Assembly: GCF_030684315.1 (NCBI RefSeq)
Contig: NC_081355.1
Location: 54,049,909 to 54,113,908 of the forward strand
Source of the DNA: Stegostoma tigrinum
Lineage: Eukaryota
Reading direction: 5' to 3'
DNA: 64,000 bases
The notes under the pieces were generated by a model that did not search any database, was not told where the DNA came from, and saw only the letters and a list, made by a program, of their open reading frames with translations. Positions 11,252-64,000 of the stretch are shown piece after piece. The first letter of the stretch is position 1; each line of letters starts with the position of its first letter. Both the position numbers and the translations under genes were made by a program.

Positions 11252-11800
11252 GGGGAGGCAATGGCCTAGTAGTATTCTCGCTGGACTATTAATCCAGATA
11301 ATGTTCTAGGGAGAGATAGTAGAAACTGCAGATGCTGGAGAATCTGAGACAACAAGGTGTACAGCTGGATGAACACGGCAGGCCAAGTAGCATCATAGGA
11401 GCAGGAAAGCTGACGTTTCGGCTTTCTGCAGAAGGGTCTAGGCCTGAAACATCAGTTTTCCTGTTCCTATGATGCTGCTTGGCCTGCTGTGTTCATCCAA
11501 CTCTACACCTTGTTATCTCAATGTTCTGGGGGTCCAGGTTCAAATTCGGCCAATGCAGATGATGGAATCTGAATTGAGAAGAAAAAATCTTGAATTAAGA
11601 GTCTACCAATGACCATGAGTCCATTGGTGATTGTTGGAAAACCCATTCGGATTCATTACTGCCCTTTAAGGAAGGAACTTCCATCCTTACCTGGTCTGGC
11701 CTACATGTGACAAGTTGACTCTTATCTGCCCTCTTGCCAATTAGGAATGGGCAATAAATGCTGGTCTAGCCAGCGATGCCCCCATCCATGAAGAATATTA
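11252..11800 (+). mobile_element. tRNA-derived DeuSINE-like (SacSINE1-like) element, interrupted by the mini-PLE
   Basis: tRNA-like head TGGCCTAGT...GGTTCAAATTC, central CCTTACCTGGTCTGGCCTACATGTGAC and GGGCAATAAATGCTGG tail. Confidence 0.6.
11312..11520. mobile_element. Miniature PLE fold-back (two inverted terminal-repeat fragments) inside a SINE
   Basis: Minus arm 11312-11422, plus arm 11423-11520; TSD AATGTTCT(A/G)GGG at 11300-11311 and 11520-11531. Confidence 0.85.
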
Positions 11801-13120
11801 AAAAGAAAACCCAATGTAATTTCCCGAAAAGAAGGCTGTGTTTCATCAATTTGAATCGTGGCCACTGGAGGAGTGTGATTCAGTTGATATGCTCTACCTG
11901 GACTGTCAAAAGCTTTTAATAAATATCACACAAGATGCTTCTCTACAAGAGAGAATTTTGTGGAATTGAAAGTAAAATTTTTGGATTGAGAATGTGTGAA
12001 AGGCATGGACTTCAAAAAATTATCAATGAATTTGGATCTGCTCAAAGGCTGGTTATCAGTGGTGATCTGTAAGGACCTCTGCTAATTGCTTTTTTCATCG
12101 ATGATCCATATTGAAGGTGTTGAGGAATTTATTGCCCTTCTATAGTTTGCCTTGAGAAGGTGGTGGCGAGCTGCCTTCTTAAACTGCTGCAGCTCATATG
12201 CTGAAGGTAGGTCCACAATGGCCTAAGGGAGGGAATTCCCAAGTTAACAGACATTATCGAGTCACATATGCAAGTTAGAACTTGAGGATGCTGAACTACT
12301 ACACACAGATTTTAATTTTCAAGGGTTGATGGCAAATCATGGTTATTTTGGAAAAATGCAGTGTTAGACATGGAGGTAGTCAAATATTAAATGAAACCGG
12401 GGTCACAATCTGAAGATATCAGGCAATCCATCTAGGACTGAGGTAAGGAGAAAAATCTTCACCCAAAGAGTGGTGAGCCAGTGGAATTCATTACCAAAAA
12501 CAACAGTCAAGGCCAAAACATTATATGATTTCAGGAAGGAGTTGGATATGGCACTTGGGGCTATTCAGATCAAAGGACATGGGCTATTGAGTTGGATGAT
12601 CAGCGATGATGATAATGAATGGTGGAGCATGTTCAAAGGGCTGAATCACCTAGTCCTACTCCTATCTTCTATGTTTCTACATTTACACATTAAAGGGAAA
12701 TATAAATAAAGCCAATGGTGAAAGAAATAGGTTAGGGCGAATTAGTGCATTAAACAGGAACGGTTTCTAACCAATACTAACTCAAACAACTAAGATTCTT
12801 GGATGGTTTTACAGAACAATGTATTATAGAACCTTACAAATTATTTTGTCCATATATGAGATTTTGTATTGACTTCTGTAGAAAACAATCTCTGGTTTTG
12901 GCCCCTGACATGACGCTGAATATTAAGATTTTTGAAACTTTACTTATCCTGGTTGGCTCTATGAGCAAAGTCTTTGTAATTCTAGAAATTATAGAAGAGG
13001 TGGTGCTGGAGGATTTAATAAACATAAAGGTGGATCAGTCTCTGGGACTTGATCAAGTGTATCTCAGGATGTTGTTGGAAGTTAGGGAAGAAATTGTGGG
13101 GCCCCAGCAGAGATCATTTT

Positions 13121-13437
13121 CATAGATCCCCTACAGTGTGGGAACAGGTCCTTCAGCCCAACCAGTCCACACCAACCCTTGGAACATCCCACCCAGACCC
13201 ATACCCCTATAATGCAGCTAATCTATATATCCCTGAGCACTGTAGGCAATTCAGCATAGCCAATCCACCTAACCTGCACGTCTTTGAACTGTGGGAGGAA
13301 ACCAGAGCACCCGGAGGAGGGGGAACCACATAGACATGGGGAGAACGTGCAGACTCCACACAGATAGTTGCCTGAGGCTGGGACTGAACCCAGGTCCCTG
13401 GTACTGTGAGGCAGCAGTGTTAATCACTGTGCTACCC
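13121..13437 (-). mobile_element. HE1-like tRNA-derived V-SINE inserted in a CR1
   Basis: tRNA-like head with A/B boxes, V-domain and CR1-like tail. Confidence 0.8.
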
Positions 13438-14256
13438 TGAATTGTACCATCTACAGCCACAGGTGAGGTGCTGGAGGACTGGATGGTGGCTAATGTTGTG
13501 CTTTTATCTAGGAAAGGTTGAAAGGAGAATCCTAGGAATTATAAAACTGTCAGCCTCACATCAGTGGTGGGTAGGTTGTTGGAGGGGATTCTGAGAGATA
13601 GGATTTACATTTATTGGAGAGGCAAGGAGTGATTAGGGATAGTCAGTATGGCTTTGTGAGTGGGAACTCATGTCTCACAAACTTGAATGAGTTTTTTGAA
13701 GATGTAACAAAAAACAGGATACTGGTTGTGGATGATCAGCCATGATCATAATGAATGGTGGTGCTGGCTCGAAGTGCCGAAGGGCCTACTCCTGCACCTA
13801 TTGTCTATTGATTGATGAGGGCAGAGCAGTAGACATTGTCTAAATGGACTTTCGTAAAGCCTTGACAAGGTTCTGCATGGTAGGCTGATTCGTAAAGTTA
13901 GATCAGGGATTCAGGGAGAGCTTGCCAATTGGATACAAAATTGGCTTGATGATAGGAGACACAGGGTGATAGTGGAGGGTTGGTTTTCAGACTGGAAGCC
14001 TGTGACCAGCGGAATTCTGCAGGGTTTTGTGCTGAATCCACTGTTGATTTATTATAAACAATTTGGATGAGAATTTAGGAAGCATCGTTAATAAGTTTGT
14101 GGATGACACCAAAATTGGTGATATAGTTGACAGTGCAGAAAGTATTCTAAAATTACAAAGGGATCTTATCAATTGGGTCAATGGGCTGAGGAGTGGCAGA
14201 TGAAGTTTAATTTGGGTAATTGCAAGGTATTGGATTTGGGTAATATGAACAAGGTT

Positions 14257-14972
14257 AGAGAGAAAGTAAGAACTGAAGATGCTGGAGAAGCTGAGATAAC
14301 AAGGTGTAGAGTTGGATGAACACAACAGGCCAAGCAGAATCAGAGGAGCCGGAAAGCTGATGTTTCGAAACTTCTTCCGAAATGGGGGAGGGGAAGAGAG
14401 TTCTGAAATAAGTAGGGAGAGAGGGGGAGGCAGATAGAAGATCGATAAAAGAGAACAAAGGTGGAGAGGAGACAGACAAGTTAAAGAGGCGGGGATGGAG
14501 CCAGTAAAGGTGAGTGTAGGTGGGGAGTTAGGGAGGGGAAAGGTCAGTCCAGGGGGTATCTACAGGGCAAGGAGGCAAGATGAGGCTAGTACCTGGGAGA
14601 TGATGGGGGTTGGACTTGAGGTGGGAGGAAGAACAGGTTAGGGAGGTGGGAACAAGCTTGGTTAGTTTTGGGATGCAGTGGGGGAAGGGGATGAACTGGG
14701 CTGGTTTTGGGATGCAGTGGGGGAAGGGGAGATTTTGAAGCTTGTGAAGTCCACGTTGATGCCATTGGGCTGCAGGGTTCCCAAGTGGAATATGAGTTGC
14801 TGTTCCTGCAACCTTCGGGTGACATCATTGTGGCACTGCAGGAGGCACAGGATGGACATGTCATCTGAGGAATGGGAGGGGTAGTTGAAATGGTTCGCGA
14901 TGGGGAGGTGCAGTTGTTTGTTGTGAACCAAGCGTAGGTGTTCTGCAAAGCGGTCCCCAAGTCTCCGCTTGG
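14257..14972 (-). mobile_element. PLE 3' fragment inserted in a CR1 LINE
   Basis: End of GIY-YIG (IANHFN...EQQLIFHLGTLQPNGINVDF) plus the 3' UTR shared with the other PLE copies. Confidence 0.85.
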
Positions 14973-16211
14973 TAGGGTAGGACTTGTATTGTTAAGGGTA
15001 GGGTCCTGAGTAATGTTGTCGAACAGAGAGACCTACGGTTTCAGGTAAATAGTTCTTTGAAAGTTGTGTTGCTGGTAGACAGGTGGCTCATCAGTCATTT
15101 AGCATGTTTGCTTCATTGCTTAGAAAATTGAGAATGGGATTTGGGGCGTCATGTTGAGGTTGTACAGGGCGCTGGCGAGGCCACTTTTGGAGAACTGTGT
15201 ACAGCTCTGGTTGTCCTCGTATAGAAGAGATAATATTACATTAGAGAGGGTTCGAAAAAGATTTGCCAGAATGCTGCCAGGACTGGAGGGTTTGAGTTAT
15301 AAGGAGAAGCTTGATAGGCTGGGACTCTTTTACACCGGAGCATAGGAGGTTGAAGGGTTATCTTAGAGGTTTATGAAATCATGAAGAGCATAAATAAAGT
15401 GAAAAGCAAAGGTCTTTACCCAAACTCAAAACTAGGGGACATATTTTTAAAGTGAGAGTAGGAAGATTTAAAAGGGACCTGAGGGACAATGTTTCACAGA
15501 GAGGTTTGCACGTGGAATCAACAGCCAGAGGAAATGGCAGATGCAGGTTAATTACAACATTTACAAGACATCTGGACAGATACAAGAAGATGAAGGGTTT
15601 ATACAGGGATATGGGCCAAATGCAGCAAGTGGGAGTAGTTTAGTTTGGGAAACTTGATCAACATAGATGAGTTGGACCGAACTTATATGACTCTGTAAAC
15701 GTAGTCATTTGAGAGTGATTTGACTGAAATTTATAAAATAAATTAGATTTTCTTTTTGTAGCCTAATGAATTTCAACTGGATAAGTCAGGAAAAACCAAT
15801 GTGCAATTTATAGCAGGATAGAATTAAACATTACGGGATTTCCTTTCTCAGAGGTCAGTTTGGAACAGGTTATAAGGTCATCCAAAGATTTCTAATTTGA
15901 TGTATTCCAATGAGAGCAGAAGCTGTTCCCAACTGCAACAAAGCTCAAGCCGTATAACAGGATATTGACCCTATAATATATCAAGGCCAATGTGATCTCC
16001 TGTTTGGTTACAATAACCTATGTGGGTCAGTGAGGAATTTTTCAATTTTTTTCCTAATACTAGGCTGAGACATTTATTGTTTTGTGGATTCTCCCATGTG
16101 GTTGCATGGCTTTAGGTAAGTGGAGTTTATTTATTGTGATACAAGAGGTATTTTAAATAAGACTGATCGTTTTTATATGACCACATTAATAGCACTGCAC
16201 TTTTGGGTGAA

Positions 16212-16825: not shown

Positions 16826-17880
16826 ATTGTTCCATTTGAGATCCATTCCATAAATACCAATGACAAAATTAGCAGAAGCTGATAAACAGCTTAAAGAAAC
16901 TGGCAATCAATATGCAATGGTATATGAAAATAAGTAAGAAGCTGAAATTCCATGAGGGCAAGGGACTGATGGTGCCCTGTATCCTGAGTGTTGCTATCTT
17001 CCACCATAACTGCAATTCCCTGTTGAAATTCTAAAGTAGTGGCAAAGATAGTTTATACAGTTTCTCAGGGGTTTCATCCCTTTGGTTAAATGATCAGTTA
17101 CTTCCATTGAATAAAACAATTGTTTTGAAGGCTTGAATATTAAAACAAACGAAGAGAAGGTACTATGAGAGCTTGAGTTTATGAGCTGTAACTTCTGCAA
17201 GGAAAATTCATTGAGATTGTGTGTTTAATCATATTTATGTTCGTACTTACGAGTTGCATCATCAGTGTTACATTGCTTTTCGTGCATAAACACACAGAAA
17301 TATATACATAACGCTGATAAAAGAAGTTTCGCATAATACTGTAAATAGGAATTCCAATTTGGTAATGGTGGAATATAGAGTAGTAATCACAATTTTAAAA
17401 ATCCATTTGCTCTTCTGATTCCCATCACGTCTTCCTAACATTTTTCAGTACTCTAAATACTCTATTGTCACGAAAGCAATTGAAGATGCACTATAATAGT
17501 CACTACCAAACTGACATGTAGCTGAATGCTGGCATGATGTGGGTCCCAGATCACAATCTACCATGAAAAAGTGAGAAGCAAAACATAAGCAGAAAGTTAA
17601 CCTGTTTTGTTAGTCAGAAAACTGACAGTATTTTGATGTAGTATTTTGATTTCACTCCCACAAAGTCAATGGAGGATAAAATAAAATCAGTTACAGTGTA
17701 AAACCTGCAGATGACCCAAACATTTCAGCTTCCTGCCAGAGTATGGTGGTTAAAATTAACCCTATAGGATCTGGTTCACATAGTACTCTAGTATGAAACC
17801 ATTGAATTAAAATAGCTTTGGAGATGCATTGATGTGTTCTTGAAAAGAATATTTAAACAAAGACAACAGCTCTCAAACTC

Positions 17881-20800
17881 AGAGACAATAGGAAGTGCAG
17901 ATGCTAGAGAATCCAAGATAACAGGGTGTGGAGCTGGATGAACACAGCAGGCCAAGCAGCATCAGAGGAGCAGGAAAGCTGATGCTTCGGGCCTAGACCA
18001 TTCATCAGAAATGGGGGAGGGGAAGAGGGTTCTGAAGTAAATGGGGAGACAGGGGGAGGCGGATTGAAGATGGATAGAGGAGAAGATAGTTGGACAAGAG
18101 AGAGACAAGTTAAAGAGACAGGGATGGAGCCAGTAAAGGTGAGTGTAGGTGGGGAGGTCGGGAGGGGATAGTTCAGTCCAGGGAGGATGGACAGGTCAAG
18201 GGGGCAGGATAAGGTTAGTAGGAAGGAAATGGGGGTGTGGCTTGAGGAGGGAGGAGGGGATAGGTGGGAGGAAGAACAGGTTAGGGAGGCAGGGATGAGT
18301 TTATCTGGTTTTGGGATGCAGTAGGGGGAGGGGAGATTTTGAAGCTTGTGAAATCCACATTGATACCATTGGACTGCAGGGTTCCCAAGCAGAATATTAG
18401 TTGCTGTTCCTGCAACCTTCGGGTGGCATCGTTGCGGCACTGCAGTTGGCCCAGGATGGACTTGTCGTCTGAAGAATGGGAGGGGGGAGTTGAAATGATT
18501 CGCAACCAGGAGATGCAGCTGTTTATTGCGAACCGAGCGGAGGTGTTCTGCAAAGCAGACCCCAAGCCTCTGCTTGGTTTCCCTGATGTAGAGGAGGCCA
18601 CAAGGGGTACAGTGGATGCAGTATACCACATTAGCAGATGTGCAAGTGAACATCTGCTTGATGTGGAACGTCTTCTTGGGACCTGGGATGGGGATGAGGC
18701 AGGAGGTGTGGGGGTAGGTGTAGCACTTCCTGCGGTTGCAGGGAAAAGTGCCGGGTGTGGTGGGACCGGAGGGGAGTGTGAAGCGAACAAGGGAGTCACG
18801 GAGAGAGCGATCCCTCCAGAAAGCAGACAAGGGTGGGGAGGGAAAAATGTCTTTGGTGGTGGGGTTGGATTGCAGATGGCAGAAGTGTCGGAGGATGATG
18901 TGTTGTATCCGGAGGTTGGTGGGGTGGTAAGTGAGGATGAGGGTGATTCTCTTTTGGTTGTTATTGCGGGAACCGGCTGTGAGGGATGAGTTGCGGGAAA
19001 TGCGGGAGACACGGTTGAGGGCGTTCTTGACCACTGCGGGGGGGATGTTGCGGTCCTTGAAAAATGAGGACATCTGAGATGTGTAGTAGTGGAATGCTTC
19101 ATCCTGGGAGCAGATGCGGTGGAGGCGAAGGAATTGGGAATAGGGGATGGCATTTTTACAGGAAGGTGGGTGTGAGGAGGTATATTCTAGGTAGCTGTTG
19201 GAGTCGGTGGGCTTGAAATGGATATCAGTTTCTAGGTGGTTGCCCGAGTTGGAGACAGAGAGGTCCAGGAAAGTGAAGGAGGTGCTAGGGATAGTTCAGG
19301 TGAACTTAAGGTTGGGGTGGAAGGTGTTGTTGAAGTGGATGACCTGTTCGAGCTCCTCGTGAGAGCACGTGGCGGTGCCAATACAGTTGTCAATGTAATG
19401 GAGGAAGAGGTGAGGTTTTGGGCCGGTGTAGGACCCGCATAGGCCTGGGCTATGCCTGCCTCTTTGTAGGTTATGTGGAACAATCCCTCTTCCGCACCTA
19501 CACTGGCGCTAAACCAACTCTTCCTCTGTTACATTGATCACTGTATCAGCGCAGGCTCGTGCTCCCACAAGGAGCTCGAACAGTTCATCCACTTCACCAA
19601 CATCTTTCACCCCAACCTTAAGTTCACCTGGGCTATCTCTAACACCTCCCTCACCTTCCTGGACCTCTCTGTCTCCATCTTGGGCATCACCTAGAAACTG
19701 ATATCCATTTCAAGCGCACTGACTCCCACAGCTACCTAGAATACACCTCCTCCCACCCACCTTCCTACAAAAATGCCATCCCCTATTCCTAATGCCTTCG
19801 CTTCTGCCGCATCTGCTCCCAGGATGAGGCATTCCACTACCGTACATCTCAGATGTCCTCGTTTTTCAAGGACCATAACTTGCCCCCTGCAGCGGTTGAG
19901 AACGCCCTCAACCGTGTCTGCCACATTTCCTGCAACTCATCCCTTACACCCCGTCCCTGCAATAACAACCAAAAGAGAATCCCCCTCATCCTCACATACC
20001 ACTCCACCAACCTCTGGATACAACGCATCAGCCTCCGACGTTTCCGCCATCTGCAATTCGACATCACCACCAAAGACATTTTTCCCTCCCCACCCTTGTC
20101 TGCTTTCTGGAGGCACCACTGTCTCCATGACTCTCTTGTCCGCTCCACACTCCCCTCCAGCCCCACCACACCCGGCACTTTTCCCTGCAACCGCAGGAAT
20201 TGCTACCTCTGCCCCCACACCTCCTCCCTCACCCCCATCCCAGGCCCCAAGAAGACTTTCCACATCAAGCAGATGTTCACCTGCACAACTGCTAATGTGG
20301 TATACTGCATCCGCTGTACCCGTTGTGGCCTCCTCGACATCAGGGATACCAAGTGGAGGCTTGGGGTCCACTTTACAGAACACCTACGTTCGGTTCACAA
20401 TAAACAGTTGCACGTCCGGGTCGCAAATCATTTCAACTCCCCCTCTCATTCCTCAAACGACATGTCCATCCTGGGCCTCCTGCAGTGCCACAATGATGCC
20501 ACTTGAAGGTTGCAGGAACAGAAACTCAAATTCTGCTTGGAAACCGTGCAGCCCAATGGCATCAATGTGGATTTCACAAGCTTCAAAATCTCCCCTCCCC
20601 GTACTGCATCCCAAAACCAGCAGAAGTTGTACGCACCTCCCTAACCTGTTCTTCCTCTCACCTATCCCCTCCTCCCACATCAAGCCGCACCACATTTCCT
20701 ACCTACTAACCTCATCCCGTCCCCTTGACCAGTCCGTCCTCGCTGGGTTGACCAATCTCCTCCCGACCTCCCCACCTGCACTTACCTTTACTGGCTTCAT

Positions 20801-20949
20801 CCCTGCCTCTTTAACTTGTCTGTCTCTTCTCCACCTATCTTCTCCTCTATCCATCTTCAATCAGCCTCCCCCTCTCTCCCTATTTATTTCAGAACCCTCT
20901 TCCCCCTCCCCCATTTCTGATGAAGGGTCTAGGCCCGAAACATCAGCTC
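17881..20949. mobile_element. Older Penelope-like element, inverted/fold-back insertion
   Basis: Minus arm 17881-19432 and plus arm 19433-20949 with frameshifted RT/GIY-YIG; flanking repeat CAGCTCTC(A/T)AACTCAGA at 17867-17883 and 20944-20960. Confidence 0.9.
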
Positions 20950-20989
20950 TCTAACTCAGACAGATTATTTTGTGCATGTTTCCTCTTAC

Positions 20990-21426: not shown

Positions 21427-21741
21427 GGGCGATATGGTGGCTCAGTGGTCAGCACTGTTACCTCACAGTGCCTAGGACCTGGGTTCAATTCCAGCCTTGG
21501 GTGACAGTGTGTATGGAGTCTGCATATTCTCTTTGTTTCTCCTGGGGGGTTCTGGTTTCCTCCCACAGTCTAAAGATGTGCAAGTTAGGTGGACTGGCCA
21601 TACCAAATTACCAATAGCGTTTAGAGATGTGTAGGTTAGGTGCACTAACCATGGCAGATGGGTCTGGGTGGGAGGATCTTCAGAGGGTTGGTTTGGACTT
21701 GTTTGGCCAAATGGCCTGTTTCCACACTGTGGGGATTCTAT
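21427..21741 (+). mobile_element. HE1-like tRNA-derived V-SINE
   Basis: GGTGGCTCAGTGG A-box, GGTTCAATTCC B-box, V-domain and tail. Confidence 0.8.
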
Positions 21742-22974
21742 TTGAAAAAAAAACTGTTTTCCCTTGCATATTTTCAGTTCTTCAATGAATAACAATTATT
21801 ACTCAATTGATTGATTTAAATGTGTTAATGGAATGACCCACATGAAACCTGTCTCAATAAAAATAACAATGGGCAGGTAGAGATGCATTTGTGTATTTGT
21901 GATTTGCACAGCCTCTGACCCTTTTCTATCTGCCTGTTACTGGCTTAATCAAGACCTGAGCATCCCTCAGACTGTCTACTGACAGATAAAGTACTGAAAA
22001 TAAATTGATAAAGAATCATGGATTCTGCTTTTTGGAGATTTCAAAACACTCATTTGCCAACCAGGTAAATTACTTGATTGAGTTTTTAAAACTCCCACTA
22101 CCTGGCAGAAACCAAATCAATAGCTCTTTTTCCTGCTCTAATACGGCCAACAATGACTTTAACCCCAGGAAATGTGAGGCTTCTGCCTTGGTCAGGATCT
22201 TGCTCAGGAAGGTTTATATGGGTCACAGGGAACCACTGGATTTTGCACTTCCCTGATCAGTGAGCTGCTTCAAGCACAGGTAACTCAACAATGAATACTG
22301 TTCTAGGCCGTCAACCATTTCAATCATGCTGGCGACAGGCTTGCTCTGCTCCATCACCATGTGAAGGAAATAGCCACTTTGAATTGATTCTGTGATTTAT
22401 GTATACGTTACTCAGCCATATAAAGTGTGCGTCTCGGAGGAAAAGTCAAATGAATGTCATGGATGAACTATGGCACCACTGTCCTATTTCATCAAAATCT
22501 CAATTTTATTTGTTATTGAATTGAACTAAAACATCAGTGGATTTTCTTGTCTTTCTTGCAGAAATGTATTCTAATTTATAGAATTTTTACTTTCTATCAG
22601 ATGCATAACAATTTTTTATTTGTTCACCTTGTTGCACATTTTTGATAGCAACGTTTTTTTAAGCTGGGGAATGCAGTGAAGAAAGTCATCCTTTTTACAG
22701 ATGTAACCACGTAATAACTTTCCATTAATACCACTAATTATGAAATATACTGCTAATTGAAATTCACTTTCAACATCAGTGCACATAAGCTAAAAATTAA
22801 CTTAATTGTTTAAGCAGCATGGAATCTAGCATACAGCCTAATGAAGATTTATATCCTTGATAAATGATAATTAAGGCAGTAATGTCTTTTTTTAAAAATG
22901 TAGAATGGTTATGTCTTTAAACCTCAAAGATGTATAATTTACAAAATCCTGCAGTCCTTTGCATTCTAATGTAC

Positions 22975-24899: not shown

Positions 24900-26940
24900 T
24901 AAGCCCATCAAATGCATATTCCGCACCATGCAGGAAATCCAGGACACACCTCATATCCTGGACAATCATGTGCAGGAACAGTCGTTGGCTGAAGGGTTAG
25001 AGTTCTTGGTTATAGAGATTAAACAGCTTATGAATAGCATGTTTCTGAAAGTCGTCAACTCACAACTTAAGAGAGTAAATAAGCATTGCTAAGAAATAGT
25101 AGAAATTGCAGTTGATGGAGTCAGAGATAACACAGTGTGGAAATAGAGGAGGCCAGCAGGCCAGGCAGCATCAGAGGAGCAGGAAAGTTGATATTTTGGG
25201 TCAGGACTTCAGAAATGGGAGGAGGGGTAAGGGAGCTGGGAAATAAATAGAGGAGAGGTGGGGCTGGGGAAGGTAGGTGGGATGGTGATAGGTGAGTGCA
25301 GGTAGGGAGTGGTGGAGATTGGTCGGTGAGGTGGGAGAGGTGGATACCTGGGAGAGAAGATGGACAGATTGTGTCCGTTCAAGGAGATGGGGATGAGAGG
25401 GAGGGTTAATCATGGGATGAGGCCGAGGGTGGGGAGATTTTGAAACTGGTAAAATCCATGTTTAGACCATTGGGTTATAGGCTCCCAAGTTGGAATAGGA
25501 GGTGCTGCTCCTCCAGTTTGTGGGTGGCATCAGTGTGACAGTGGAGGAGGCCCAGGATGGACATGTCACCCAGGGAGTGGGAGGGGGAGTTGAAATGGTT
25601 CGCATCCGGAAGGTGTTAACGTTTGTCGCAAACAGAGGACAGGTGCTGTATAAAATGGTCTCCGAGCCTCCGCTTGGTCTCTCCAATGTAGAGAATGCCA
25701 CATCAGGAGCAGTGGATGCAATAGACCACATTGACTGGTGTGCAGGTAAACTTCTGTGTAATGTGGAACGTTTGGTTTGGCCTTGAATGGAGGTGAGGGG
25801 TGTAGGTGTAGGGCAGATGTAGCACTTCTTGTGGTTGCAGGGAAAGGTGCCAGGGGTGGTGGGGCTAGTGGGGGGTGTGGAGTAGATGAGAGAGTCATGG
25901 AGAGAGTGGTCCATACAGAAGGCGTGTAAATGTGGGAGGGAAATATATCTTTTGTTATGGGGTCAGGTTGTAGGTGGCTGAAGTGGCGGAGATTGACACA
26001 TTAGATATGGAGATTGGTGGGGTGATACATGAGAAAAAGGGGGATTCTGTCTTTGTTTTTGTTGGTGGGAGGGGATGTGAGGGCAGAGGTGCAGGAAACG
26101 CAAGAGATGTGGTTGAGAGAATTTTCAATCACCAAAGGGATGAAGTTGCAGTCCTTGAAATAGGAGGACATCTGGAATGTGCAGGAGTGGAATGCCCCAT
26201 CTTGGGAGCAGACATGGCAGAGGCAGAGGAATTGGGAGTACAGGATTGCATTCCTGCAGTCAGGTGGTTGAGAGGTGGTATAGTCTAGGTAGCTGTGGGA
26301 GTTGGTGGGCTTGAAATAGATGCTGGTTTCGAGGCAGTCACCACAGATGGAGACAGAGGGGTTCAGGAATGAGAGGGAGGTATCAGGGATGGTCCAGGTG
26401 AACTTGAGGTTGGAGTGAGAAGTGTTAGTAAAGTTGGTGAACTGTTCAAGTTCCTCGTAAGAGTACAAGGCAGCGCCTATACAGTTATTGATATAGCAGA
26501 GGAAGAGGTGGAGAATAGTGCCAGTGTAACAGTGGAAGAGGTTCTGTTCCACATAATAAGTATTTCTAAACAAGAAAGGAGGTCAAGGCAGATAAAGCAG
26601 GAGTCACGTGAGTGCATCTCACTCTCCAATCAGTATTCAGTTCAGAACATTAGTGCAGATGATGATTTCTCTGAAGAACACAGCTATAGAAAAGTACAAA
26701 GTAATGTAGGTGGCTCAGCTCTATTGGGGGTAAATGAAGGAAGAAGTTCAGGAAAGCAATAGTGATAGGGAATTCTATAATTTGAGGAACAGGTAAACAT
26801 TTTTTGAATTCATTCTTTGGGTGTGGGCATGGTTGACATGGCCAACATCATTGCTCTTGACTCTGGGATGGCATGCTGCCTTCCAGTTCTCAGAACTAGA
26901 GGCATCAGTGAGCTGTGCAAAACATTTTGTAGAGGGTATT
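24900..26940 (+). mobile_element. CR1 ORF1 (esterase-type) remnant split by a PLE
   Basis: AIVIGNSI-like and CCLP-like motifs at about 26757-26885; upstream half at about 24900-25075. Confidence 0.5.
25092..26556 (-). mobile_element. Diverged PLE (RT C-terminus + GIY-YIG + 3' end) inserted in a CR1 ORF1 remnant
   Basis: ORFs 26001-26573 and 25462-25914 are homologous to the PLE ORF; degenerate TSD AATAAG(C/T)ATT(G/T)CTAA at 25078-25092 and 26555-26569. Confidence 0.85.
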
Positions 26941-27039
26941 TTCAAGAATGGAGAATTCTAGAAATGAGTAAGAATTTGATGTGTTGAGGTTATTCCCTGT
27001 TGAATACCAGATGCTGAGGAGTGGTTTAATTGAGTTTCT

Positions 27040-27399
27040 TTTGTTTTATTTGTTCATGGGATGAGGGCATCACTGACCAGGCAGCATTTATTGCCCATCT
27101 CTAATTGCCCAGAGGGCAGTTAAGAGTCAACCACATTGCTGTGGGTCTAGAGTCACATGTAGGCCATGTGGGGTAAGGATGGCAGTTTCTTTCCCTAAAG
27201 GATATTATTGAACCAGGCGGGTTTTTCCTGACAATTGACAATGGGTTCATGGCCATCATTAGATCCTTAATTCCAGATGTTTTACTAGATTCAAATTCCA
27301 CCATCTGCCGTGGCGAGATGTGAATATAGGTCCCTAGAAAGTTATCTGGGTCTCTGGATTGATAGTCCATATATAATTCCACAAGGCCATCGCCTCCCC
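27040..27399 (-). mobile_element. tRNA-derived DeuSINE-like element
   Basis: Reverse complement of the 11252-11800 family. Confidence 0.6.
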
Positions 27400-27876
27400 G
27401 AAAAATATAAAATTACCAGAAGCCTAAATAGATTGTATTAGAAAGACCTAATTTCCTTACCTGAGAGATCAATAACTAAGGGCAAAAATTTAAAGTAACT
27501 GGCAGAAGAATTAGAGAGACTTGAGAAGAAATATTTTCACAAAGATTGCAGTGATGGTGATTCTGGAACAATTCTCATTACATTTAAAAAGGATATGCAC
27601 TTGAAGTGACATAACCTGCAGAGCTACAGATTAAGAACTTGAATGAGGCAGAATAGTTTTTTGTAAGTTTTTTTGTAGTTGCAATTATATGCAGCCTTAG
27701 TGAAACTATGCCTGGAATATTGTGCACTGTTCCAGTTACTTTAGTTGAGCATATATTTTCCTGTAGAGAAGGTTTAACAGTTAGCAGGAACATACTGCAA
27801 GGAGAAATTGAGGACACCTTGTCTGTATTGGAACAGTACAGCACAGGAACAGGCCCTTTAACCCCCCAATGAACAT

Positions 27877-27991
27877 CCTACTGCACATGGTATGCCCAGG
27901 CAGTCTCTCATCTAAGTACTAGCCAGGCCTGAATATGCTTAACTTCTGAGATCAGACAAGTTCCAATGTTTTCAGACTAGTACAGTGAAGA
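27877..27991 (-). pseudogene. 5S rRNA-derived sequence (pseudogene or SINE3-like head)
   Basis: Minus strand ...CTTGTCTGATCTCAGAAGTTAAGCATATTCAGGCCTGGCTAGTACTTAGATGAGAGACTGCCTGGGCATACCATGTGCAGTAGG aligns to vertebrate 5S rRNA with many substitutions. Confidence 0.85.
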
Positions 27992-48667: not shown

Positions 48668-48986
48668 ATAGAATCCCTACAGTGTGGAAACAGGCCCTTT
48701 GGCCCAACAAGTCCTCACCAAACCTCGGTGCATCCCACCCAGACCCATTCCCCCATTCACCCACCTAAGTGACACATCCTGAACACTACAGGCAATTTAG
48801 CATGGCCAATCCACCTCACCTGCACATCTTTGGACTACAGGAGGAAACCAGAGCATCCAGAGGAAACCCACGCAGACAAGGAGAGAATGTGCAACCTCCA
48901 CACAGGCAGACACCCAAGGCCAGAATCGAACCTGGGTCCCTGGTGCTGTGAGGCAACAGTGCTAACCACTGTGCCACCGTGCCGCC
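48668..48986 (-). mobile_element. HE1-like V-SINE
   Basis: Same family, full length and well preserved. Confidence 0.82.
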
Positions 48987-51950: not shown

Positions 51951-51954
51951 TTTC

Positions 51955-53997: not shown

Positions 53998-54230
53998 CTG
54001 GAACAACAAATCAAAAACAGGAAAACATTAGCAGTTCAGGCTCTTTGCTTAATATCTCAAAACCACATTAATAACTTCAGAGCTCTTTTGCACTTCCGAC
54101 TCAGGGCAGCAACAGAGTGTGTAAATACTTCAGTAGAGGGAAGAAGGCTTATAGATGAGAAGCGAACATCAGCAACAAGGTAATTTTAAAAAAAAATGCA
54201 TCTTTCACTACTTTAGGGATTAATTCAGGG

Positions 54231-54548
54231 AAGCACAACGGCTCAGTGGTTAGCACTGCTGCCTCACAGCACCCTTCCGGGTGGAATCAACCCAGGTTCG
54301 ATGCCACTCCTTGGGTGACTGTGTTCTCCCCATGTCTGCGTGGGTTTCCCCCAGGTGCTCTGGTTTCCTCCCACAGTCCAAAGATGTGCAAACTAGGTGA
54401 ATTGGCTTTACTAAATTGCCTGTAGTGTTCAGGGATGTGTAAGTTGGGTGTTTATAGGGGGATAGGTCTGGGTGGGATGCTCTGAGAGGGTCAGTATACA
54501 CTTGTTGGGGCAAAGGGCCTGTTTCCACAGTGTAGAGATTCTATGATC
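54231..54548 (+). mobile_element. HE1-like V-SINE
   Basis: Same family, with small internal deletions. Confidence 0.78.
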
Positions 54549-54559
54549 TAAGGGATATG

Positions 54560-55134: not shown

Positions 55135-55662
55135 TGTGAGAGATGAGGATGATTAAACTGCAGTGAAAAGAATTACTCAGCTTTGAACAAAAAGACATCT
55201 AGTACTGAGTCGAGTGATAAGAAAAGGAGGTGAGGGCCAAGTGGTTAGAAACCAGAATGAACTGGTCCAAAACTACTAGCAGACACCCAGAGGGTGAAAA
55301 GGTTAAACTTTGCACAATAGACATAGTTGAAGCGCATGCCTAATGAGAGAATGCATATTAACTTTTACGCCCATGCTTGCGAAGTTGCTTAATTAGCATA
55401 ACATACGATGTATGAAGGGGGTAGGACAAGGGAAGTAACGGAAAGATTGTGCACCTTGGAGCTCAGATTGGACGGAGCTAAAAGGGGAGGATCTAGCCGG
55501 ATAAATGATGTATAAAAAGGGGAAGTTCCCTGGCCTGTGTGTGCCTCAGGCAACGGGGGGGCACCTGATTCTGCAGACTCATAATAGAGCTTAGGTTACG
55601 TGTTTCCAAGACTTTGCCTCCACTGACTCTGTGATTGTGAGCACGTGAATCTATGTCTCACA
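55135..55662 (+). repeat. ERV 5' LTR (528 bp)
   Basis: Direct repeat of 61558-62084 with about 24 substitutions and 1 indel by manual count; TATAAA at about 55511. Confidence 0.95.
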
Positions 55663-55666
55663 AGCT

Positions 55667-55684
55667 TGGGGGCTCGTCCGGGAT
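55667..55684 (+). promoter_or_regulatory. Primer binding site, tRNA-Pro
   Basis: TGGGGGCTCGTCCGGGAT, the canonical 18-nt tRNA-Pro PBS (as in MLV), 4 nt after the LTR. Confidence 0.95.
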
Positions 55685-55957
55685 CCACACTCTGAGTTGT
55701 CCGGCGGTGGGTTCGGAAGAAGGGAAGGCGCGCCCCACTGAGTTCGGCGGTCCCAGACATCCTTGCATGCCATTGGGCGGCTCGAGCGAGAGGTATCCGG
55801 ATAGGAGACTCTGGAAACAAGTGGGTTTAGGTTAAGGGCCCTTGGAACGAAAATCGATCGAGCAATTCTTGTGCACAAGACCCGGGTAAGAAAATTGACT
55901 ATTACGTATTATCTGGGCAATCGGGGGTAATCTGTCGAGGGAAAATATTTGACAGGG

Positions 55958-56602
55958 ATGGGAGATCAGCGCGTGAAAGCTGAAAGACCCTGGGAAGAGG
56001 AGAAGGGGCCAGGAAAAAGGGGTCCTGAGATTCCGCCCGATAGTCCGTTGGGGTGGATGTTAGAAAACTGGAAGGGAGGAAGGACTAGGAGTAAGAATAA
56101 AAAGAATACAGTTAAATATTGTTACTAAGGATGAAGCCCCGACAGCTTTTTTATAGAGGTTGCGGAGAAATATGAAGCAAGTTTCGGACATCGATCCAAA
56201 TTCAGAATTTGGGCAACAACTTCTGAGGACAAATTTTGTAATCAAATCCTAGACCGATATTGAGTGGAAATTAGAAAAGATGAATGATTCGAATAAAAAG
56301 CCTCTAGACGAGTTATTGTCCGACGGGAAGACGAAAAACAAAAAGGGAAAGCAAAAATGATGATGCAGGCGGTAGAGCAAGTTGTTGAAAAGAAGTGGGA
56401 ATGTGAAGGACAGCGGGCGGCCCCGAGAAGAAGAGGAAGGGGCGTGGCGGGAGGCAAAAGAAGGGAAAGGGAAAGAGAACAAATATGGAAGACGGGACCC
56501 TTAAGATGTTATCACTGTAACGAGGAGGGACATTTCAAGTGGGAATGTCCTAAACTAAGGATGAAGGTCAGCTCCTATGCCTTGATGGAGGAGGAAGATT
56601 AG
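55958..56602 (+). pseudogene. gag: ERV gag, internally deleted and disrupted
   Basis: ATG at 55958 gives MGDQ...IPPDSPLGWMLENWK...VKYC, then an abrupt jump to MHR-like KDEAPTAFL*RLR; single CCHC knuckle CYHCNEEGHFKWEC; TAG at 56600-56602. Confidence 0.85.
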
Positions 56603-59600
56603 GGGGGTCGGGGGTTCCCTTCCTAGGGGTCAATGGGATATCAACAGGAACCCCTAGTAAACTTAAAAATTGGACCCCAAGGAGAAGAGTTGGTGTTTAT
56701 GGTGGACTCCGGAGCCGAAAGATCGAGGGTAGTACAAATTCCACAGGGTCTGACGGTGGGAAAGGAAAGTATAAAAATATTCGGAGTCGGGGGGAAGGGT
56801 GATGGAGATGTCGGTGATTGAAGGAGTATATGTAAGATATCAAGACCAGGAGACGGTAGAGGACCCGATTGTAGTACCGCAAGTCGGGGTAAACCTCATG
56901 GGATGGGATCTACAAATCCGTTTGGGGGTAGGGACTGCCCCCATGGAAGGACACATTGTGATCCAGCTATACCACCTAAGGGAGGGAGATGAAAAAGAGA
57001 TCGAGGACCGAGTCTGGTCTGGGAAAGGGAACAGAGGAGGCCTGCAGATACCACCGCTTCAGATAACCGTGAAGGAAGGATGTGGTCCGGTATGAGTTAG
57101 ACAATATCCCATATCAATAGAGGGACAGAAGGGGCTCCAATCGGTTATTGAAAATCTCTTGCGAGATGGACTGATAGAAGGATGCATGTCTCCCTGTAAC
57201 ACACCGGTCCTACCAGCACGGAAGGCCGATGGGACGTTCCGCCTCGTCCAAGACCTCAGAGAATTAAATAAAATTGTCCAGACTCGACATCCAGTTGTCC
57301 CAAATCCTGATACCATCCTCAATCGGATTCCTCCCAATCATGAGTGGTTCATGTGGTTGATCTGAAGGATGCTTTTTGAAGTTGCCCGCTCGCCGAAAGG
57401 TGTCGGGACCTGTTTGCCTTCGAATGGGAGGACCCCCAGACCGGGAGGAAGCAACAGTAGCGGTGGACAGTTCTTCCCCAAGGATTCACTGAATCCCCTA
57501 ACTTGTTTGGTCAAGTCTTAGAACAGGTATTAGAGGAATACCATGGGGCCCTGGGTACGCCACTGATACAATATGTGGATGATCTTCTAGTCTCAGGAGA
57601 AAGAGAGAGAGAAGTATGATATTCCACTATAACGTTATTAAACTTACTGGGAAGGAAGGGGTTGAGGGTGTCCAAGAACAAGTTGCAATTTGTCGAGCAG
57701 GAGGTGAAATACTTGGGTCATTTAATAAGTCAAGGGAAAAGAAGAATAGGTCCGGAAAGAATCGCTGGAATTACTAGTTTGCCCCTACCGAAGAGTCAGA
57801 CAGAAATTCGAAGGTTCCTAAGGCTCATTGGGTACTGTAGATTGTGGATCGACGAATATGCCCAATGAGTCAGGTTTTTGTATGACAAACTAGGAGGAGA
57901 AGATGAGAAGATAACATAGACTCCACAAGAGCAACAAAAGTACACTATTTTAAAAAAACAGCCTGGTAAACGCTCCGGTTCTGGCTCTACCCTCAGCCAA
58001 TCAACCCTTCCACTTGTTCGTGAATGCCGAGAACGGGGTAGCCTTGGGAGTGCTAACTCAGAAGCAAGGAGGTCAACGGCACCCCGTGGCTTTCCTCTTG
58101 AAGGTTCTGGATCCAGTATCCCGTGGCTGGCCGGTGTGCATTCAAGCGATTGCAGCCACAGCCATCCTGGTTGAGGAAAGTCGGAAACCCACTTTTGGAG
58201 GAAACCTGGTAGTATCTACCTCAGAACTGTCAGAATGATTCTGGCCCAGAAATCTCATCGATGGCTGACAGATTCCAGGATATTGAAGTATGAGGCTATT
58301 TTGATGGAAAAAGACGACTTAACCATCGTCACAGACAAGAGCTTAAATCCTTCCCGGTTCCTATATCCGCCTGAGGGAGGGGAAGAATCTGGGAACCCGG
58401 AGCATAATTGCAGTGAGGTAATAGAGCTACAGACAAAAAGCAGGGATGACCTGGAGGAGGAACCCCTTGCAGAGGGGTGTAGGTGGTTTATAGATGGGTC
58501 ATCCTGCTGCATTGATGGAAAAAGATACAGTGGATATGCCATCATCGACGGGACCATGGAAACTGAAGTAGAGTCTGGGAGACTGCCTGGAGGTTGGTCT
58601 GCCCAATCCTGTGAACTATATGCTCTGATGAGAGCGTTAGAATTATTGGAGAATCAAGAAGTTGCTATATATACTGACTCGAAATATGTGTTCGGGGTAG
58701 TACACACTTTTGGGAAGATCTGGAAGGAACGAGGAATGACTACAGCAAGAGGAAAAGAGCTAGCTCATGAACAACTTATTGAAAAGACCTTGGAAGCCCT
58801 ATTAAAACCTGAAAAGATTGCAGTGGTGCATGTCTCGGGACATCAGAAGGGACATTCGCCTGAGGCTAGGGGAAACAGATTGGCAGATAAGGTGGCGTGG
58901 CAAGCCGCCCAATCTGGGACTGTGCGGATGTCCCTTATTCCCCTGAGAGAAGGGGTAAAGAAGGTGCCGGTGTTCTCGGTGTTCGATGAAGTACGAACGG
59001 AGGACCTGGGAGCCAGGATGGCAAGAGATGGGAGGTGGTGGCTCCCTGATGGGAGACAGCTGTTGAACAAGGAGATCACCACAGAACTGTTGGGAGAATT
59101 GCACTCCCAGTCGCACTGGGGAGCCCAAGCATTATGTGATGCTCTCTTGCAGGTGTATGCCTGTAGGGGGATCTTCACCCTGGCAAAGCAAGCGGTCTCT
59201 CGATGTATAATTTGTCAGAAGATAAATAAGAAGGTGATGAGAGCCACGCCAGGAGGGGGGCAGCTGTTGGCAATCTGACCGTTCCAAAGAATACAAGTGG
59301 ATTTCACCGAGCTCCCCAGGGTCCAGAGATGGAAGTACCTGTTGGTGATAGTTGATCACTTTACCAGGTGGGTGGAAGCCTTTCCCGCTGTCAGTGCCAC
59401 ATCCCAAGTGGTGGCCAAGATTCTCTTGGAACATGTGATTCCCAGATATGGGATAATAGAGTCTCTAGACTCAGATTGTGGAACACATTTTGCTTCCAAG
59501 ACACATGAACTGATTTGTGACACTTTAGGGATGAAATGGAAGTTACATGCACCATGGCACCCACAGAGCTTGGGAATGGTCGAACGAATGAACGCCATTC

Positions 59601-60142
59601 TAAAGACTCAGATAACGAAATTGATGGAAGTAGACGAAGCTCCCCTGGACTAAATGTTTGCCGATAGCTCTGCTCAGGATACGCACCGCTCCCCGCAGAG
59701 ATATAGGGGAGTCCCCTTACGAGATGTTGTTCGGGCTCCTATACATGGGAAAGATAGAAGGGGTGCCCACTATTGAGGGTAATGATGTATTTCTAAGGAA
59801 CTATTTACAGGCATACACCCGCAAGAGAGCATCACTCGTTCCCTTACAGAGTTAAAGGCCAAAGGGCTGTTGGCGCAGAGTCCTCCTCTCAATTTTTCTA
59901 TCCACTCGGTCAAGGCAGGAGACTGGGTTTTGGTCAAGTCGTGGAGGGAAGAAAAACTCCAGCCGCAGTGGACTGGTCCATACCTGGTGCTGCTGACAAC
60001 AGAGACAGCAGTCCGAATGAAAGAAAAAGGGTGGATGCATGCGGCACGGATAAAGGGGCCAGTGGATCCGCCGGCTGAGGAAGAGTGGGAGGCACGGGAG
60101 GGGGATAACCCATTGACTTTAAAATTGAAGAAGATAATATGA
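56603..60142 (+). pseudogene. pol: ERV pro-pol (protease, RT, RNase H, integrase) with stops and frameshifts
   Basis: FMVDSGA protease site; FRLVQDLRELN, LPQGF and YVDD (about 57572); WFIDGSS and IYTDSKY RNase H; HHCC, DFTE, DSDCGTHF and WTGPY integrase. Confidence 0.92.
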
Positions 60143-61534
60143 AGGGTTTACACTGTACTGTTATTTTGTTGTCAATTGTAGCCTGGGGAGAGGGAAAGAA
60201 TCATTTTTACCACTTTATGTCAAAACTATGCTAGACAAACGGGGCGTACCAACTGCTGGGTGTGTGCTGCGATCCCACATCATGGGGAATCCAGAATTCC
60301 TCTTACTGTTGTACCTCTGATCAAAGAAGAAATAGGCGAGGTGCTGCAGTTTGACTCCACTTTAAATGATACATGGGAATCGGTCAGGGGTGCATAGAAT
60401 TCTAGTTACGGGAATTGGTGGCCGCGTTGGGGAAGGTGGAACGGGAGCAAGGGGAATTATAGTTTCAAGGAATGGTTTCCTCGGCCGGCCCCACAGACCC
60501 AAGGTGCAATTGACGGTCTCAGAGTTTCACCACCTGGGGGACAGGTTAACTCAACGTGTTTCTGTAACTGGAATGATAGAGCCCCGTTCCAATTGGGGAA
60601 TTTGTCTTGTAAATTAAACATTCTAGCCTCAGACACCACCCTACCCCGAGTTTTGAATGGGATGCGCTGGGTTTGCAATAAAAGGTGTATCCATATCTAT
60701 CCGGGGATATGCACCAACACCGAGGGGAGGAGGGGTCTGGGTGGGGGAGATCCTTGCCCCATGATCAAAAGGGATGGAGTGGCTGTTGTTACCTAGCCTA
60801 TTTGGTTCCACATATGAGACTCCTGGGGCGGACCCCTAAGCTAAACCAGAGGCAAGGAGGAGGGAGACGTAACCTCCAAAAAGTAACTGAGGGGGATCGT
60901 CTCCTCTGGACCCTGTTACCCATGTGTGGGACTGCCCGATCAGGGAGAGAGATACAGAAGCTGGCGGCCTCTCTGGAGGAGTTGGCCAATGACACTGCTG
61001 ATGTGTTAGCCGATACCCAATCCCACGTGGAGGCCATAATCACTGCGATGATTGCCACTAGGCTAACGGCTCTTCAAAATCAGATGGCTCTAGACATTGT
61101 TCTAGCCGAAAAGGGCGGTACCTGTGCCCTAATTAGGGTAGAATGTTGTACATACATACATACCGGACGCCTCCCCCAATATTACTGATATCTCCCAGCA
61201 CATGCGAGACCAGATTGCCAAAATAAGGGAAGCCGGTAACAGGTACCGGAATGAGAAAGGATGGGAATGGGGAAATTGGGGATTGACCGGTTGGGGAAGT
61301 TGGCTGCTCAATTTGGCCATTTATGGATTGTTGATACTGGTGGGTCTGGTGGTGGGGCTCAATGTCCTGAAATGTGTATTGATCCGATTGATGACATCCC
61401 TTGAAGGGGGGACCCAGGTTCACTGCCAAAGGCTTCTGCAATTGGAGGATAGTACGCAGCAGAGAGAGATTCAGAGGATGCTCTGGGGGTTCGAGGGACG
61501 GGATCCCAAGGTGCAGTTTAATCATAATGCGTAG
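60139..61534 (+). pseudogene. env: ERV env (gamma-type), frameshifted
   Basis: TNCWVC (CXXC) near 60250; ISD-like LQNQMALDIVLAEKGGT followed by CALIRVECC (CX6CC); hydrophobic TM in ORF 61202-61534. Start is approximate. Confidence 0.85.
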
Positions 61535-61535
61535 C

Positions 61536-61553
61536 AAAAAGAAAAAGGGTGGA
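61536..61553 (+). promoter_or_regulatory. Polypurine tract
   Basis: AAAAAGAAAAAGGGTGGA just upstream of the 3' LTR. Confidence 0.8.
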
Positions 61554-61557
61554 TAAT

Positions 61558-62084
61558 TGTGAGAGATAAGGATGATTAAACTGCAGTGAAAAGAATTACT
61601 CAGCTTTGAACAAAAAGACATCTAGTACTGAGCCGAGTGATAAGAAAAGGAGTTGAGGGCCAAATGGTTAGAAACCAGAATGAACCGGTCCAAAACTACT
61701 AGCAGACACCCAGAGGGTGAAAGGGTTAAACTTTGCACAATAGACATACTTGAAGCGCATGCCTAATAAGAGAATGCATATTAACTTTTACGCCCATGCT
61801 TGCAGAGCTGCTTAATTAGCTTAACATGCGATGTACGAAGGGGGTGGGACAAGGGAAGTAACGGAAAGATTGTGCACCTTGGAGCTCAGATTGGATGGAG
61901 CTAAAAGGGGAGGATCTAGCCGGATAAATGATGTATAAAAAGGGGAGGCTCCCTGGCCTGTGTGCGCCTCAGGCAACGGTGGGCACCCGATTCTGCAGAC
62001 TCGTAATAGAGCTTAGGTTACTTGTTTCCAAGACTTTGCCTCCACTGACTCTGTGATTGTGAGCACGTGAATCTATATCTCACA
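61558..62084 (+). repeat. ERV 3' LTR (527 bp)
   Basis: Copy of the 5' LTR, followed by TSD TGTC. Confidence 0.95.
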
Positions 62085-63790
62085 TGTCTGCTCTGACAAA
62101 AGATCTGTAGGTGCAGTTGGAGAGCAATGACAATGATCCAAACACAACAATCTGCAGGACACATTCTTAAAGTGAAAGAATTAATCCAAAATGTGTTTTA
62201 AAAATTGCAATAAAAGACATTTTCTGTAGGGTGCACTTTATGAATGGGATTTTCAGTTCAGAGGGAAAAAGAGCAATTACTTAATCTGTCTGGTCTGGAA
62301 TATCTTGCGTTGCCCCGAAGTTATGTATATGATGCACCTCTGGAGGGTTCAATTTAGGACTGGTGAAGAGAAGAAAGGGCTCATTCTTAAGCCTCCCACC
62401 TTAGTTCCCTCTGTCTATAATCAGTAGATGAAGGTGCTTAACCAGAGGGAAGACAAAAGAAGCTGGTTCTGGGGCTTATGTCAAGGTTTATGGGCAGATA
62501 TACAGTAAGAAGACAAAAGTTTCATGTTTCTTCAATATGTCTCTGCCCTCACCTGCAGCCAATCCCAGCCCAGAATACTCAGAATGATTCTTGAGATCTT
62601 TCCTCCAGATGCTACATGGCTGGTTGTGTTCTTCCAGCCTCCTGTTTGTCAACAACGCAACAACCCTTGTTTCCTTCATTTCTCTCTTTTACCCCAGTTC
62701 AAGAGACAATTTTTGATCAGCAGCTCCAGGCCGTAACTCAGGCCAGATAAATCAAGGGCATTCCCAACATCATCCTCCCCAACTGCCATCACCGCCCACA
62801 CTCCAGAACCATCCAATCACTATATGAAGAAAATCAGTTGTGCAAACTACTTTTTGATTCATATCTGCACAGCACACATTGTGTCAACACAGTCCTATTC
62901 TGGAATAACAGCCTGAGTTGATACTGGATTGAAGCTAGACAGACTCCAGAAAAAGGCAGTCTCACTTCACTTTGTTTTCAAGACAATTCAGGCCTTCATA
63001 CTTGATTTACATTCAAAAGTCTTAGCTCCAATGCAAAGCTGATTGAGCACTAAGCCTGCAATGAGAATGAACCATTAAGCTTATTACAGTGTGCTGGTCT
63101 TAAATTATATTCAAAACTTATGGTACAGCTGCTGTTGAAATAAAATCCATTGCATATTGATTAAAAATGCTGCTTTGATGTTTAATGTTGTTAGCTGCAG
63201 TGACAGTTTAGTATACCATATTGATCAATATTGCATAGTGTCCATTATCTAGAGCGGGCCCAATTTTAATGATTCCAAACAAATTTAGATTTCCTCCAGC
63301 AAAGTATTAATATTCACGTTATTGGTTTTACAATATTATGAATGATATTATTTAAACAATCATTTTTCAAGTTGTTTGACAATGCAGAACTTGAGAATTG
63401 TTGAACCAAGGCTCGTTTTTCCAAAGCTTTCCATTCTGCACTCATCTGGACAAATAATAAAAACATCACAGTAAAAGGCAAAATTCTTGATACTTTAAGA
63501 GAGTTGAGTGCTAGCTGGTTGGCAATTGTAGTCCAATTCAAAGACGGCGAAAAGTATGCTGCCTGTTTGTGCATAAATTTTAAACAGACAGTTTATGGTA
63601 AGAGTCAACCTGCTGAGTTTAAAATTTAAACAAGGCCTGACTATTACCCATCAATCATCAATAACTGCATTCTCCATGGCAAATACCTGCACCATGGTCT
63701 GTATGCCAACCAAACGTCAATTTTTTTTCCTTAAATTGGTGTCCTTTCGAATTGTCTTGATGAGTTCAAGACAAAAAGCTTTAATCAAAT

Positions 63791-63937
63791 GAGATAGTAG
63801 GAACTGCAGATGTTGGAGAATCTGAGATAACAAGGCGTAGAGCTGGATGAACACAGCAGGCCAAGCAGCATCAGGGGACCAGGAAAGCTGATGTTTCAGG
63901 CCTAGACCCTTCTTCAGAAAGTTATCTTTTGTTACCT
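63791..63937 (-). mobile_element. PLE terminal-repeat fragment with HHR-like motif
   Basis: Same 3' repeat; degenerate TSD AAGCTTTAAT..AA.GAG at 63776-63793 and 63938-63955. Confidence 0.8.
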
Positions 63938-64000
63938 AAGCTTTAATTGAACGAGTATTTTATCAGCAATACTCAAGATTTTCAAAAAATTCTGTCAAGA

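Follow-up and report, generated by a model that had tools for sequence, protein, structure and literature searches.

Inverted head-to-head copies of a Penelope-like retroelement within single target-site duplications of the shark Stegostoma tigrinum

A stretch of 64,000 nucleotides from Stegostoma tigrinum (contig NC_081355.1, positions 54,049,909 to 54,113,908; hereafter the window) contains ten loci of one repeat family, found by self-comparison, that by its protein and terminal repeat is an endonuclease-containing Penelope-like element. At three of these loci, two copies stand head to head, with their 3′ ends facing outward, inside a single pair of target-site duplications (TSDs). We consider it probable that each palindrome is one Penelope-like insertion, and that its arms are both first-strand complementary DNAs (cDNAs), one for each nick of a staggered cut. 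The identity of the element, the one TSD pair per site, the extents of the arms, and the recurrence of two 3′ ends 33 nt apart are the observations on which we build this reading.

A sequence-only reading of the window had proposed that a single layout recurs at five sites: a TSD, a minus-strand arm with a complete 3′ end, a plus-strand arm truncated at its 3′ end, and the second TSD. Three of the five sites are clear head-to-head pairs, while the sites at 41729 and 63791 have second arms of only 12-17 nt. The clear pairs are laid out below, where d counts nucleotides from the element's complete 3′ end.

36733 to 36746, plus strand: left TSD of the 3.2-kb site, 14 bp, 14/14 against 39966-39979
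36747 to 38135, minus strand: arm with complete 3′ end, 3.2-kb site, d1-1389
38135 to 39967, plus strand: tail-less arm, 3.2-kb site, d1886-54; contig loose end at 38135
39966 to 39979, plus strand: right TSD of the 3.2-kb site; the alignment of a relative's contig begins precisely at 39966
17867 to 17883, plus strand: left TSD of the 3.1-kb site, 15-17 bp, 16/17 against 20944-20960
17882 to 19432, minus strand: arm with complete 3′ end, 3.1-kb site, reaching about d1580
19433 to 20948, plus strand: tail-less arm, 3.1-kb site, about d1644 to d93-96, with a 5-nt TSD overlap
20944 to 20960, plus strand: right TSD of the 3.1-kb site, matching the left
11300 to 11312, plus strand: left TSD of the 0.21-kb site, within an older short repeat, 11/12-13 matching
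11313 to 11421, minus strand: arm with complete 3′ end, 0.21-kb site, d1-109; the tail is its outer 33 nt, 11313-11345
11422 to 11520, plus strand: tail-less arm, 0.21-kb site, d131-34, stopping at the tail boundary
11520 to 11532, plus strand: right TSD of the 0.21-kb site, matching the left

At all five sites the duplications score above a null built from 2993 random flank pairs (P ≤ 0.006). Under independent insertion, about 0.0015 abutting pairs are expected from 13 arms, yet three are seen. Each site has a single TSD pair and arms of one subfamily, and one event per site is supported. At the 3.2-kb site (36747-39967), the arms show 2 differences over 1336 nt (99.85-99.9% identity) and overlap by 1 nt at the inner junction, and the plus arm overlaps the TSD by 2 nt. 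The arms of the 3.1-kb site (17882-20948) are 88% alike. In both long sites the arms are each other's closest matches in the window (99.9% and 88.1%, against at most 85.4% elsewhere), and the quartet sites that bear on this kinship divide 29 versus 19 versus 8. The target of the 0.21-kb site is present once in a paralogous repeat at 27029-27399.

Contigs assembled from the same organism (runs X1 and X2) and from a related organism provide a further view of these junctions; all contig counts given here are among the matches listed. Two samples of the same organism yield contigs that extend from 39941 to 41212 and cross the right junction of the 3.2-kb site, with 27 nt on the element side, slightly short of the 31-nt bridging rule. 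In the related organism, one contig begins to align at 39966, the first base of the TSD, and has 241 further letters that do not align to the element. In a second contig, the alignment starts precisely at 41819, where the TSD of the 41729 site begins. These starts would fit empty sites in the relative, as seen from a compared stretch that excludes the left flank of 36747.

Beside the three pairs stand the two sites with tiny second arms and five single-arm copies (1166, 10123, 14259, 25092 and 46762) that the sequence-only reading had omitted. Given these single-arm copies, inverted forms make up 3-5 of the 10 loci.

41715 to 41832: tiny-arm site; TSD at 41715-41728 and 41819-41832 (13/14 match), minus arm 41729-41809, possible plus arm 41809-41820
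63776 to 63952: tiny-arm site; TSD at 63776-63790 and from 63938 (first 10 nt identical, 15/18 by eye), minus arm 63791-63920, sense pieces 63921-63937
1166 to 1260, minus strand: single tail-less terminal repeat (pLTR), with a significant 9-bp TSD; second arm absent
10123 to 10220, plus strand: single tail-less pLTR; second arm absent, TSD not found
14259 to 14973, minus strand: single arm with complete end, within an older long repeat; TSD not significant
25092 to 26556, minus strand: old single arm with complete end and a significant 15-bp TSD (13/15)
46762 to 46862, plus strand: short single arm with complete end and 95% similarity to the 36747 copy; TSD not found

At the first tiny-arm site, the 12-nt second arm matches the family at 11/12 positions (rough chance 3e-4 to 4e-3), but can also be read as TSD slippage. 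At the second, 17 nt separate the arm from the TSD and can be read as two short pieces in sense orientation that stop at the tail boundary. These are successive copies, 7 and 10 nt long, of the tail-boundary sequence, and resemble a stuttered restart in a single case. Searches for TSDs at 10123, 14259 and 46762, three of the five single-arm loci, returned none that was significant. The complete or only end lies on the minus strand at 8/10 loci, a sample we judge too small for a bias.

The identity of the family rests on two features of the 3.2-kb site:

38134 to 39669, plus strand: 5′-truncated open reading frame (ORF), 511 amino acids uninterrupted by stops, with reverse transcriptase (RT; YIDD), a CxxxxCxxC finger, and GIY-YIG with CCHH
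39894 to 39921, plus strand: minimal hammerhead-type motif in the pLTR, recognised by eye from features given in PMC4209133

RVT_1 (E 5.9e-5) and GIY-YIG (E 8.8e-4) are found in the one frame, both below the Pfam cut-offs. An alignment with seven relatives makes visible the RT motifs, the C-x4-C-x2-C finger ahead of the nuclease, and the CCHH residues, which are invariant in it (C377, C380, H399, H415). The N-terminal part of the protein is absent from the window. Of 7999 scored entries, 829 matched it; the nearest named proteins belong to Stegostoma tigrinum (94%) and Rhincodon typus (89%), followed by those of bamboo shark and rays at 64-75%, and of coral, mollusc and urchin near 50%. The putative hammerhead has, by eye, the core, an extra base before stem II, a G-C closing pair, and a palindromic 15.2-16.2 pair, features listed for the minimal hammerheads of Penelope-like elements in PMC4209133. 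An Rfam scan detected no hammerhead in the terminal repeat, and three terminal repeats, when folded, were not unusually stable (z -0.7 to 0.5). No match was found for the 23-nt terminal motif in viral or metagenome contigs, nor for the element protein profile in viral contigs. Taken together, these characters place the family among endonuclease-containing (EN+) Penelope-like elements of the Neptune/Nematis type. We infer Neptune over Nematis from the vertebrate presence reported for Neptune in a 2026 retrozyme preprint; Penelope elements are also listed for the whale shark (PMC8455134).

The arms of this family end at recurrent points. The complete end and the commonest truncated end lie 33 nt apart, both after the same short motif, and define a tail. 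The tail boundary is the end point of both tiny arms and of three arms roughly 100 nt long (1166, 10220, 11520). Two long arms end deeper, at d54 and about d93, with 2- and 5-nt TSD overlaps. Contigs of X1 have loose ends at the same points: 1231 and 1474 contigs at the complete end, 591 at the tail boundary, and 802 at the 5′ edge of the pLTR. The truncated arms had been described as usually ending in microhomology with the TSD. Overlaps at the 36747, 17882, 11313, 41729 and 63791 sites are 2, 5, 1, 2 and 0-1 nt, and their sum is significant (p 0.004-0.02) until the 5-nt case is removed (0.08-0.23). Microhomology is therefore occasional rather than the rule.

The other ends of the arms show a pattern too. 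Four of the 13 arms (1260, 10123, 11422, 63920) share a 5′ end just upstream of the hammerhead core, and about 800 contigs in X1 and X2 have loose ends at 39893. This shared end suggests a true RNA 5′ end or a splice point, not random truncation. Further, tail-to-tail joints between a tail-less end and a complete end occur in many contigs (46825-46831 to 46863/46864 and 41729; X1 examples of 50, 24 and 22 contigs). Such joints could stem from same-target re-insertion, widely spaced paired nicks, or neighbouring copies. Neither a full-length element nor a partial tandem with a direct pLTR pair is present in the window. Contig joints from the 3′ end back into the element would be compatible with tandems.

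At all three large sites, the tail is on the left arm alone, and the further 5′ reach is on the right arm alone. Each arm thus has sequence that the other lacks, and neither can be a plain fold-back copy of its partner. We propose that the GIY-YIG domain would nick both strands, 12-18 nt apart. One 3′-OH would begin reverse transcription at an outer site on the RNA, giving the tail-bearing arm, and the other would begin at an inner site, the tail boundary, or deeper, sometimes aided by a few matching bases. Both cDNAs would halt early, their 3′ ends would be joined with 0-5 nt of overlap, and fill-in would yield the minus arm and plus arm between two TSDs. Where the second nick contributed little or nothing, the outcome would be a plain copy with one arm, or a copy whose second arm is tiny. 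Priming by both nicks had already been put forward for these sites, and it remains the likeliest cause, being in keeping with the arm geometry and with the in vitro behaviour of a lizard Penelope protein. That protein, for which a dimer is predicted, cuts both strands and extends them, using two start sites on the RNA that delimit a tail (PMC11167929). A circular RNA template, also suggested earlier, gained no evidence.

The layout is not particular to sharks, since it recurs in distant relatives. We took a census of 80 metagenome loci encoding proteins 41-62% identical to that of the window, 32 of which have flank sufficient for scoring. Eight of these 32 (L002, L007, L009, L020, L039, L046, L058, L076) carry an upstream inverted 3′ copy. 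Six pairs could be resolved, five with TSDs of 11-16 bp and one, L058, with a weak TSD that is not significant (null 0.12). The corresponding extension in the relatives measures about 50-60 nt, with one long arm truncated far deeper. Some relatives' copies also lie tail-to-tail, 120 nt apart at L048:5150-5500 and 2.3 kb apart at L043:2218-4495.

Across the three window pairs and the six from relatives, the tail-bearing arm reaches less far 5′ than the tail-less arm in 9/9 resolved large pairs (p 0.004), or 8/8 without L058 (p 0.008). With three tiny arms included, the count falls to 9/12 (p 0.15). L002 (equal ends), L007 (cut by the contig end) and L077 (right end missing) were excluded. The polarity was first noticed in the three window sites and then in the six others; one related family accounts for five of these six. 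This arm-polarity rule is possibly unreported: we found neither it nor inverted Penelope insertions in sharks described in the literature searched; the Penelope papers of 1997-2008, which lie outside it, may state either. We speculate, with reservations that make this a tentative idea, that the two polymerases of one dimer working in tandem on a single RNA cause the inversions. The leader would start from the inner site; the follower, starting from the outer site, would displace the cDNA of the leader and be unable to overtake it. The polarity could alternatively come from post-insertion deletion, or from unequal processivity on two RNAs. If the tandem arrangement is true, double priming by strand displacement would be the routine integration path of this telomerase-related class.

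Several points weigh against double priming, and some of them favour a snap-back, in which a single cDNA folds through a few matching bases and copies itself, with the asymmetry arising from tail trimming and later loss of the centre. Snap-back accounts equally well for the tiny arms at 41809, 63921 and L018:496, each of which lies nested within the long arm, and L018 turns at a palindromic centre. Asymmetric loss of the palindrome centre after insertion could mask a snap-back origin. At L002, both arms end at the same point and the TSD is unclear. Across 78 nt the arms at 11313-11520 agree at only 87%, with the right arm nearer to the 63791 copy (92%). The lizard protein whose behaviour our reading matches belongs to an element of another clade. 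Published readings also differ from ours, in that inverted pLTRs have been attributed to self-priming on an antisense template (PMC3846280) and the tail to endonuclease resolution (PMC8557442). Snap-back can further call on inner overlaps of 1-5 nt in 5/9 large pairs, and on the near-identity of the arms at the youngest site. In its simple form, which had been offered as an option for these sites, it nevertheless misfits all three large ones. Indeed, in 9/9 large pairs the long-reaching arm lacks the tail borne by the short arm, so the short arm cannot be its full copy. The inner junction at 36747 has a 1-nt overlap and no palindrome, and 2/9 inner junctions hold 4-9 extra letters rather than an overlap. 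On this balance we regard snap-back as unlikely.

The remaining explanations are less probable still. The source RNA or DNA may itself have been an inverted-repeat unit, either a palindromic master or an antisense template, copied in one pass. An antisense-template model and bidirectional promoter motifs appear in PMC3846280, and palindromic copies are common enough to serve as sources. However, a master would repeat its junction on copying, and the inner junctions differ at all sites examined (d1389/1886, 1580/1644, 109/131 and six others), which makes such a source rather improbable. Two independent insertions, the second into the first, would draw on the ability of Penelope proteins to nick their own terminal repeat (PMC11167929), and on the 11312-site arms not being clearly each other's closest copy. 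Against this stand the single TSD pair at each site, junctions that fall at 5′ truncation points, the scarcity of abutting pairs expected by chance, and long arms that are mutual closest matches. This alternative is very improbable overall, and at the two long sites it is already largely refuted. An assembly or read fold-back artefact is the least credible of all. It could explain the 99.85% identity of the 36747 arms and the lack of any contig, among the matches listed, that spans their inner junction. Yet that site has distinct flanks and a perfect 14-bp TSD, contigs of two samples cross its right junction from 39941, the relative's contig starts at the first TSD base and then diverges, and the arms of older sites have themselves diverged.

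The sequence-only reading left open whether this mode of insertion had been described for sharks. It is, in fact, a published layout of Penelope-like elements (PMC8557442, PMC3846280): the layout is real, and is a known trait seen here in a shark-type family. Section 6 of PMC8557442 reports that a 5′-truncated copy in inverted orientation frequently lies adjacent to the 5′ end and that in many cases one end only carries a tail of 30-40 bp, rotifer units have such an inverted pLTR layout with 8-10-bp TSDs (PMC3846280), and inverted pLTRs serve as a feature for curation (PMC8969392). With EN+ elements (Neptune/Nematis; Arkhipova 2006 as cited in PMC8557442), the window family shares a single ORF with RT and C-terminal GIY-YIG, a CX2-5CxxC finger (here C-x4-C-x2-C), CCHH, a pLTR hammerhead motif, the inverted 5′-truncated copy at the 5′ end, and a one-end tail (here 33 nt). 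There is no difference in kind; the TSDs are longer than in the rotifer examples (12-18 bp against 8-10 bp), and truncated ends here also lie beyond the tail (d54, about d93). PAc, a Poseidon element of the green anole, shares the two RT start sites defining a tail and the nicking and extension of both strands. It belongs to another clade, and the available text of PMC11167929 neither reconstitutes nor explains inverted products.

In L1 twin priming, both nicks likewise prime and opposite arms come to lie head to head inside one TSD pair, and L1 also yields rare inverted inserts from two RNAs (PMC12016303, PMC11702581). The contrast drawn earlier with L1, on the grounds that both 3′ ends face outward and the arms overlap, is borne out. 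The overlap has a median of 12 bp in L1 (PMC12016303) and spans 75-1450 nt here, because both arms start near the 3′ end. The window family also lacks poly(A) and uses a different enzyme. An L1-type twin-priming inversion is contradicted by this overlap and the missing poly(A), and a DNA transposon or DIRS element with terminal inverted repeats by arm lengths of 12-1800 nt and an RT-GIY-YIG protein.

An abundant family with long, clean TSDs and a fixed tail represents a natural dataset with which double priming and snap-back can be told apart. The arm-polarity rule offers a sharp, inexpensive test and merits a genome-wide count. These insertions imply that near-perfect palindromes of kilobase size steadily arise in shark introns, exemplified here by a 1336-bp stem among dynein exons. 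Such intronic palindromes may bear on errors of assembly, on double-stranded RNA, and on local instability.

The copies sit between exon-like frames of a minus-strand dynein heavy chain gene (66 of 85 candidate frames scanned). From 1500 to 54010 on the minus strand, these frames encode the stalk, AAA_9, D6, lid and C-terminal domains, in order, and one adjoins the right TSD of the 17882 site.

The window holds other mobile and repeated sequences. Direct repeats of 528 nt, 95% alike and with TG...CA ends, belong to a provirus-like element at 55135-62084 that has a likely 4-bp TSD, one frame for RNase H and an integrase zinc finger (58175-59278), and an envelope-like frame (60682-61188). A decayed sequence resembling 5S ribosomal RNA lies at 27875-27992 on the minus strand (47 bits). 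A second dispersed repeat of about 320 nt, like a short interspersed element in size, has seven copies, 67-82% alike, located by self-comparison at:

2878 to 3107
13117 to 13443
21428 to 21748
35712 to 36049
44027 to 44353
48668 to 48986
54222 to 54552

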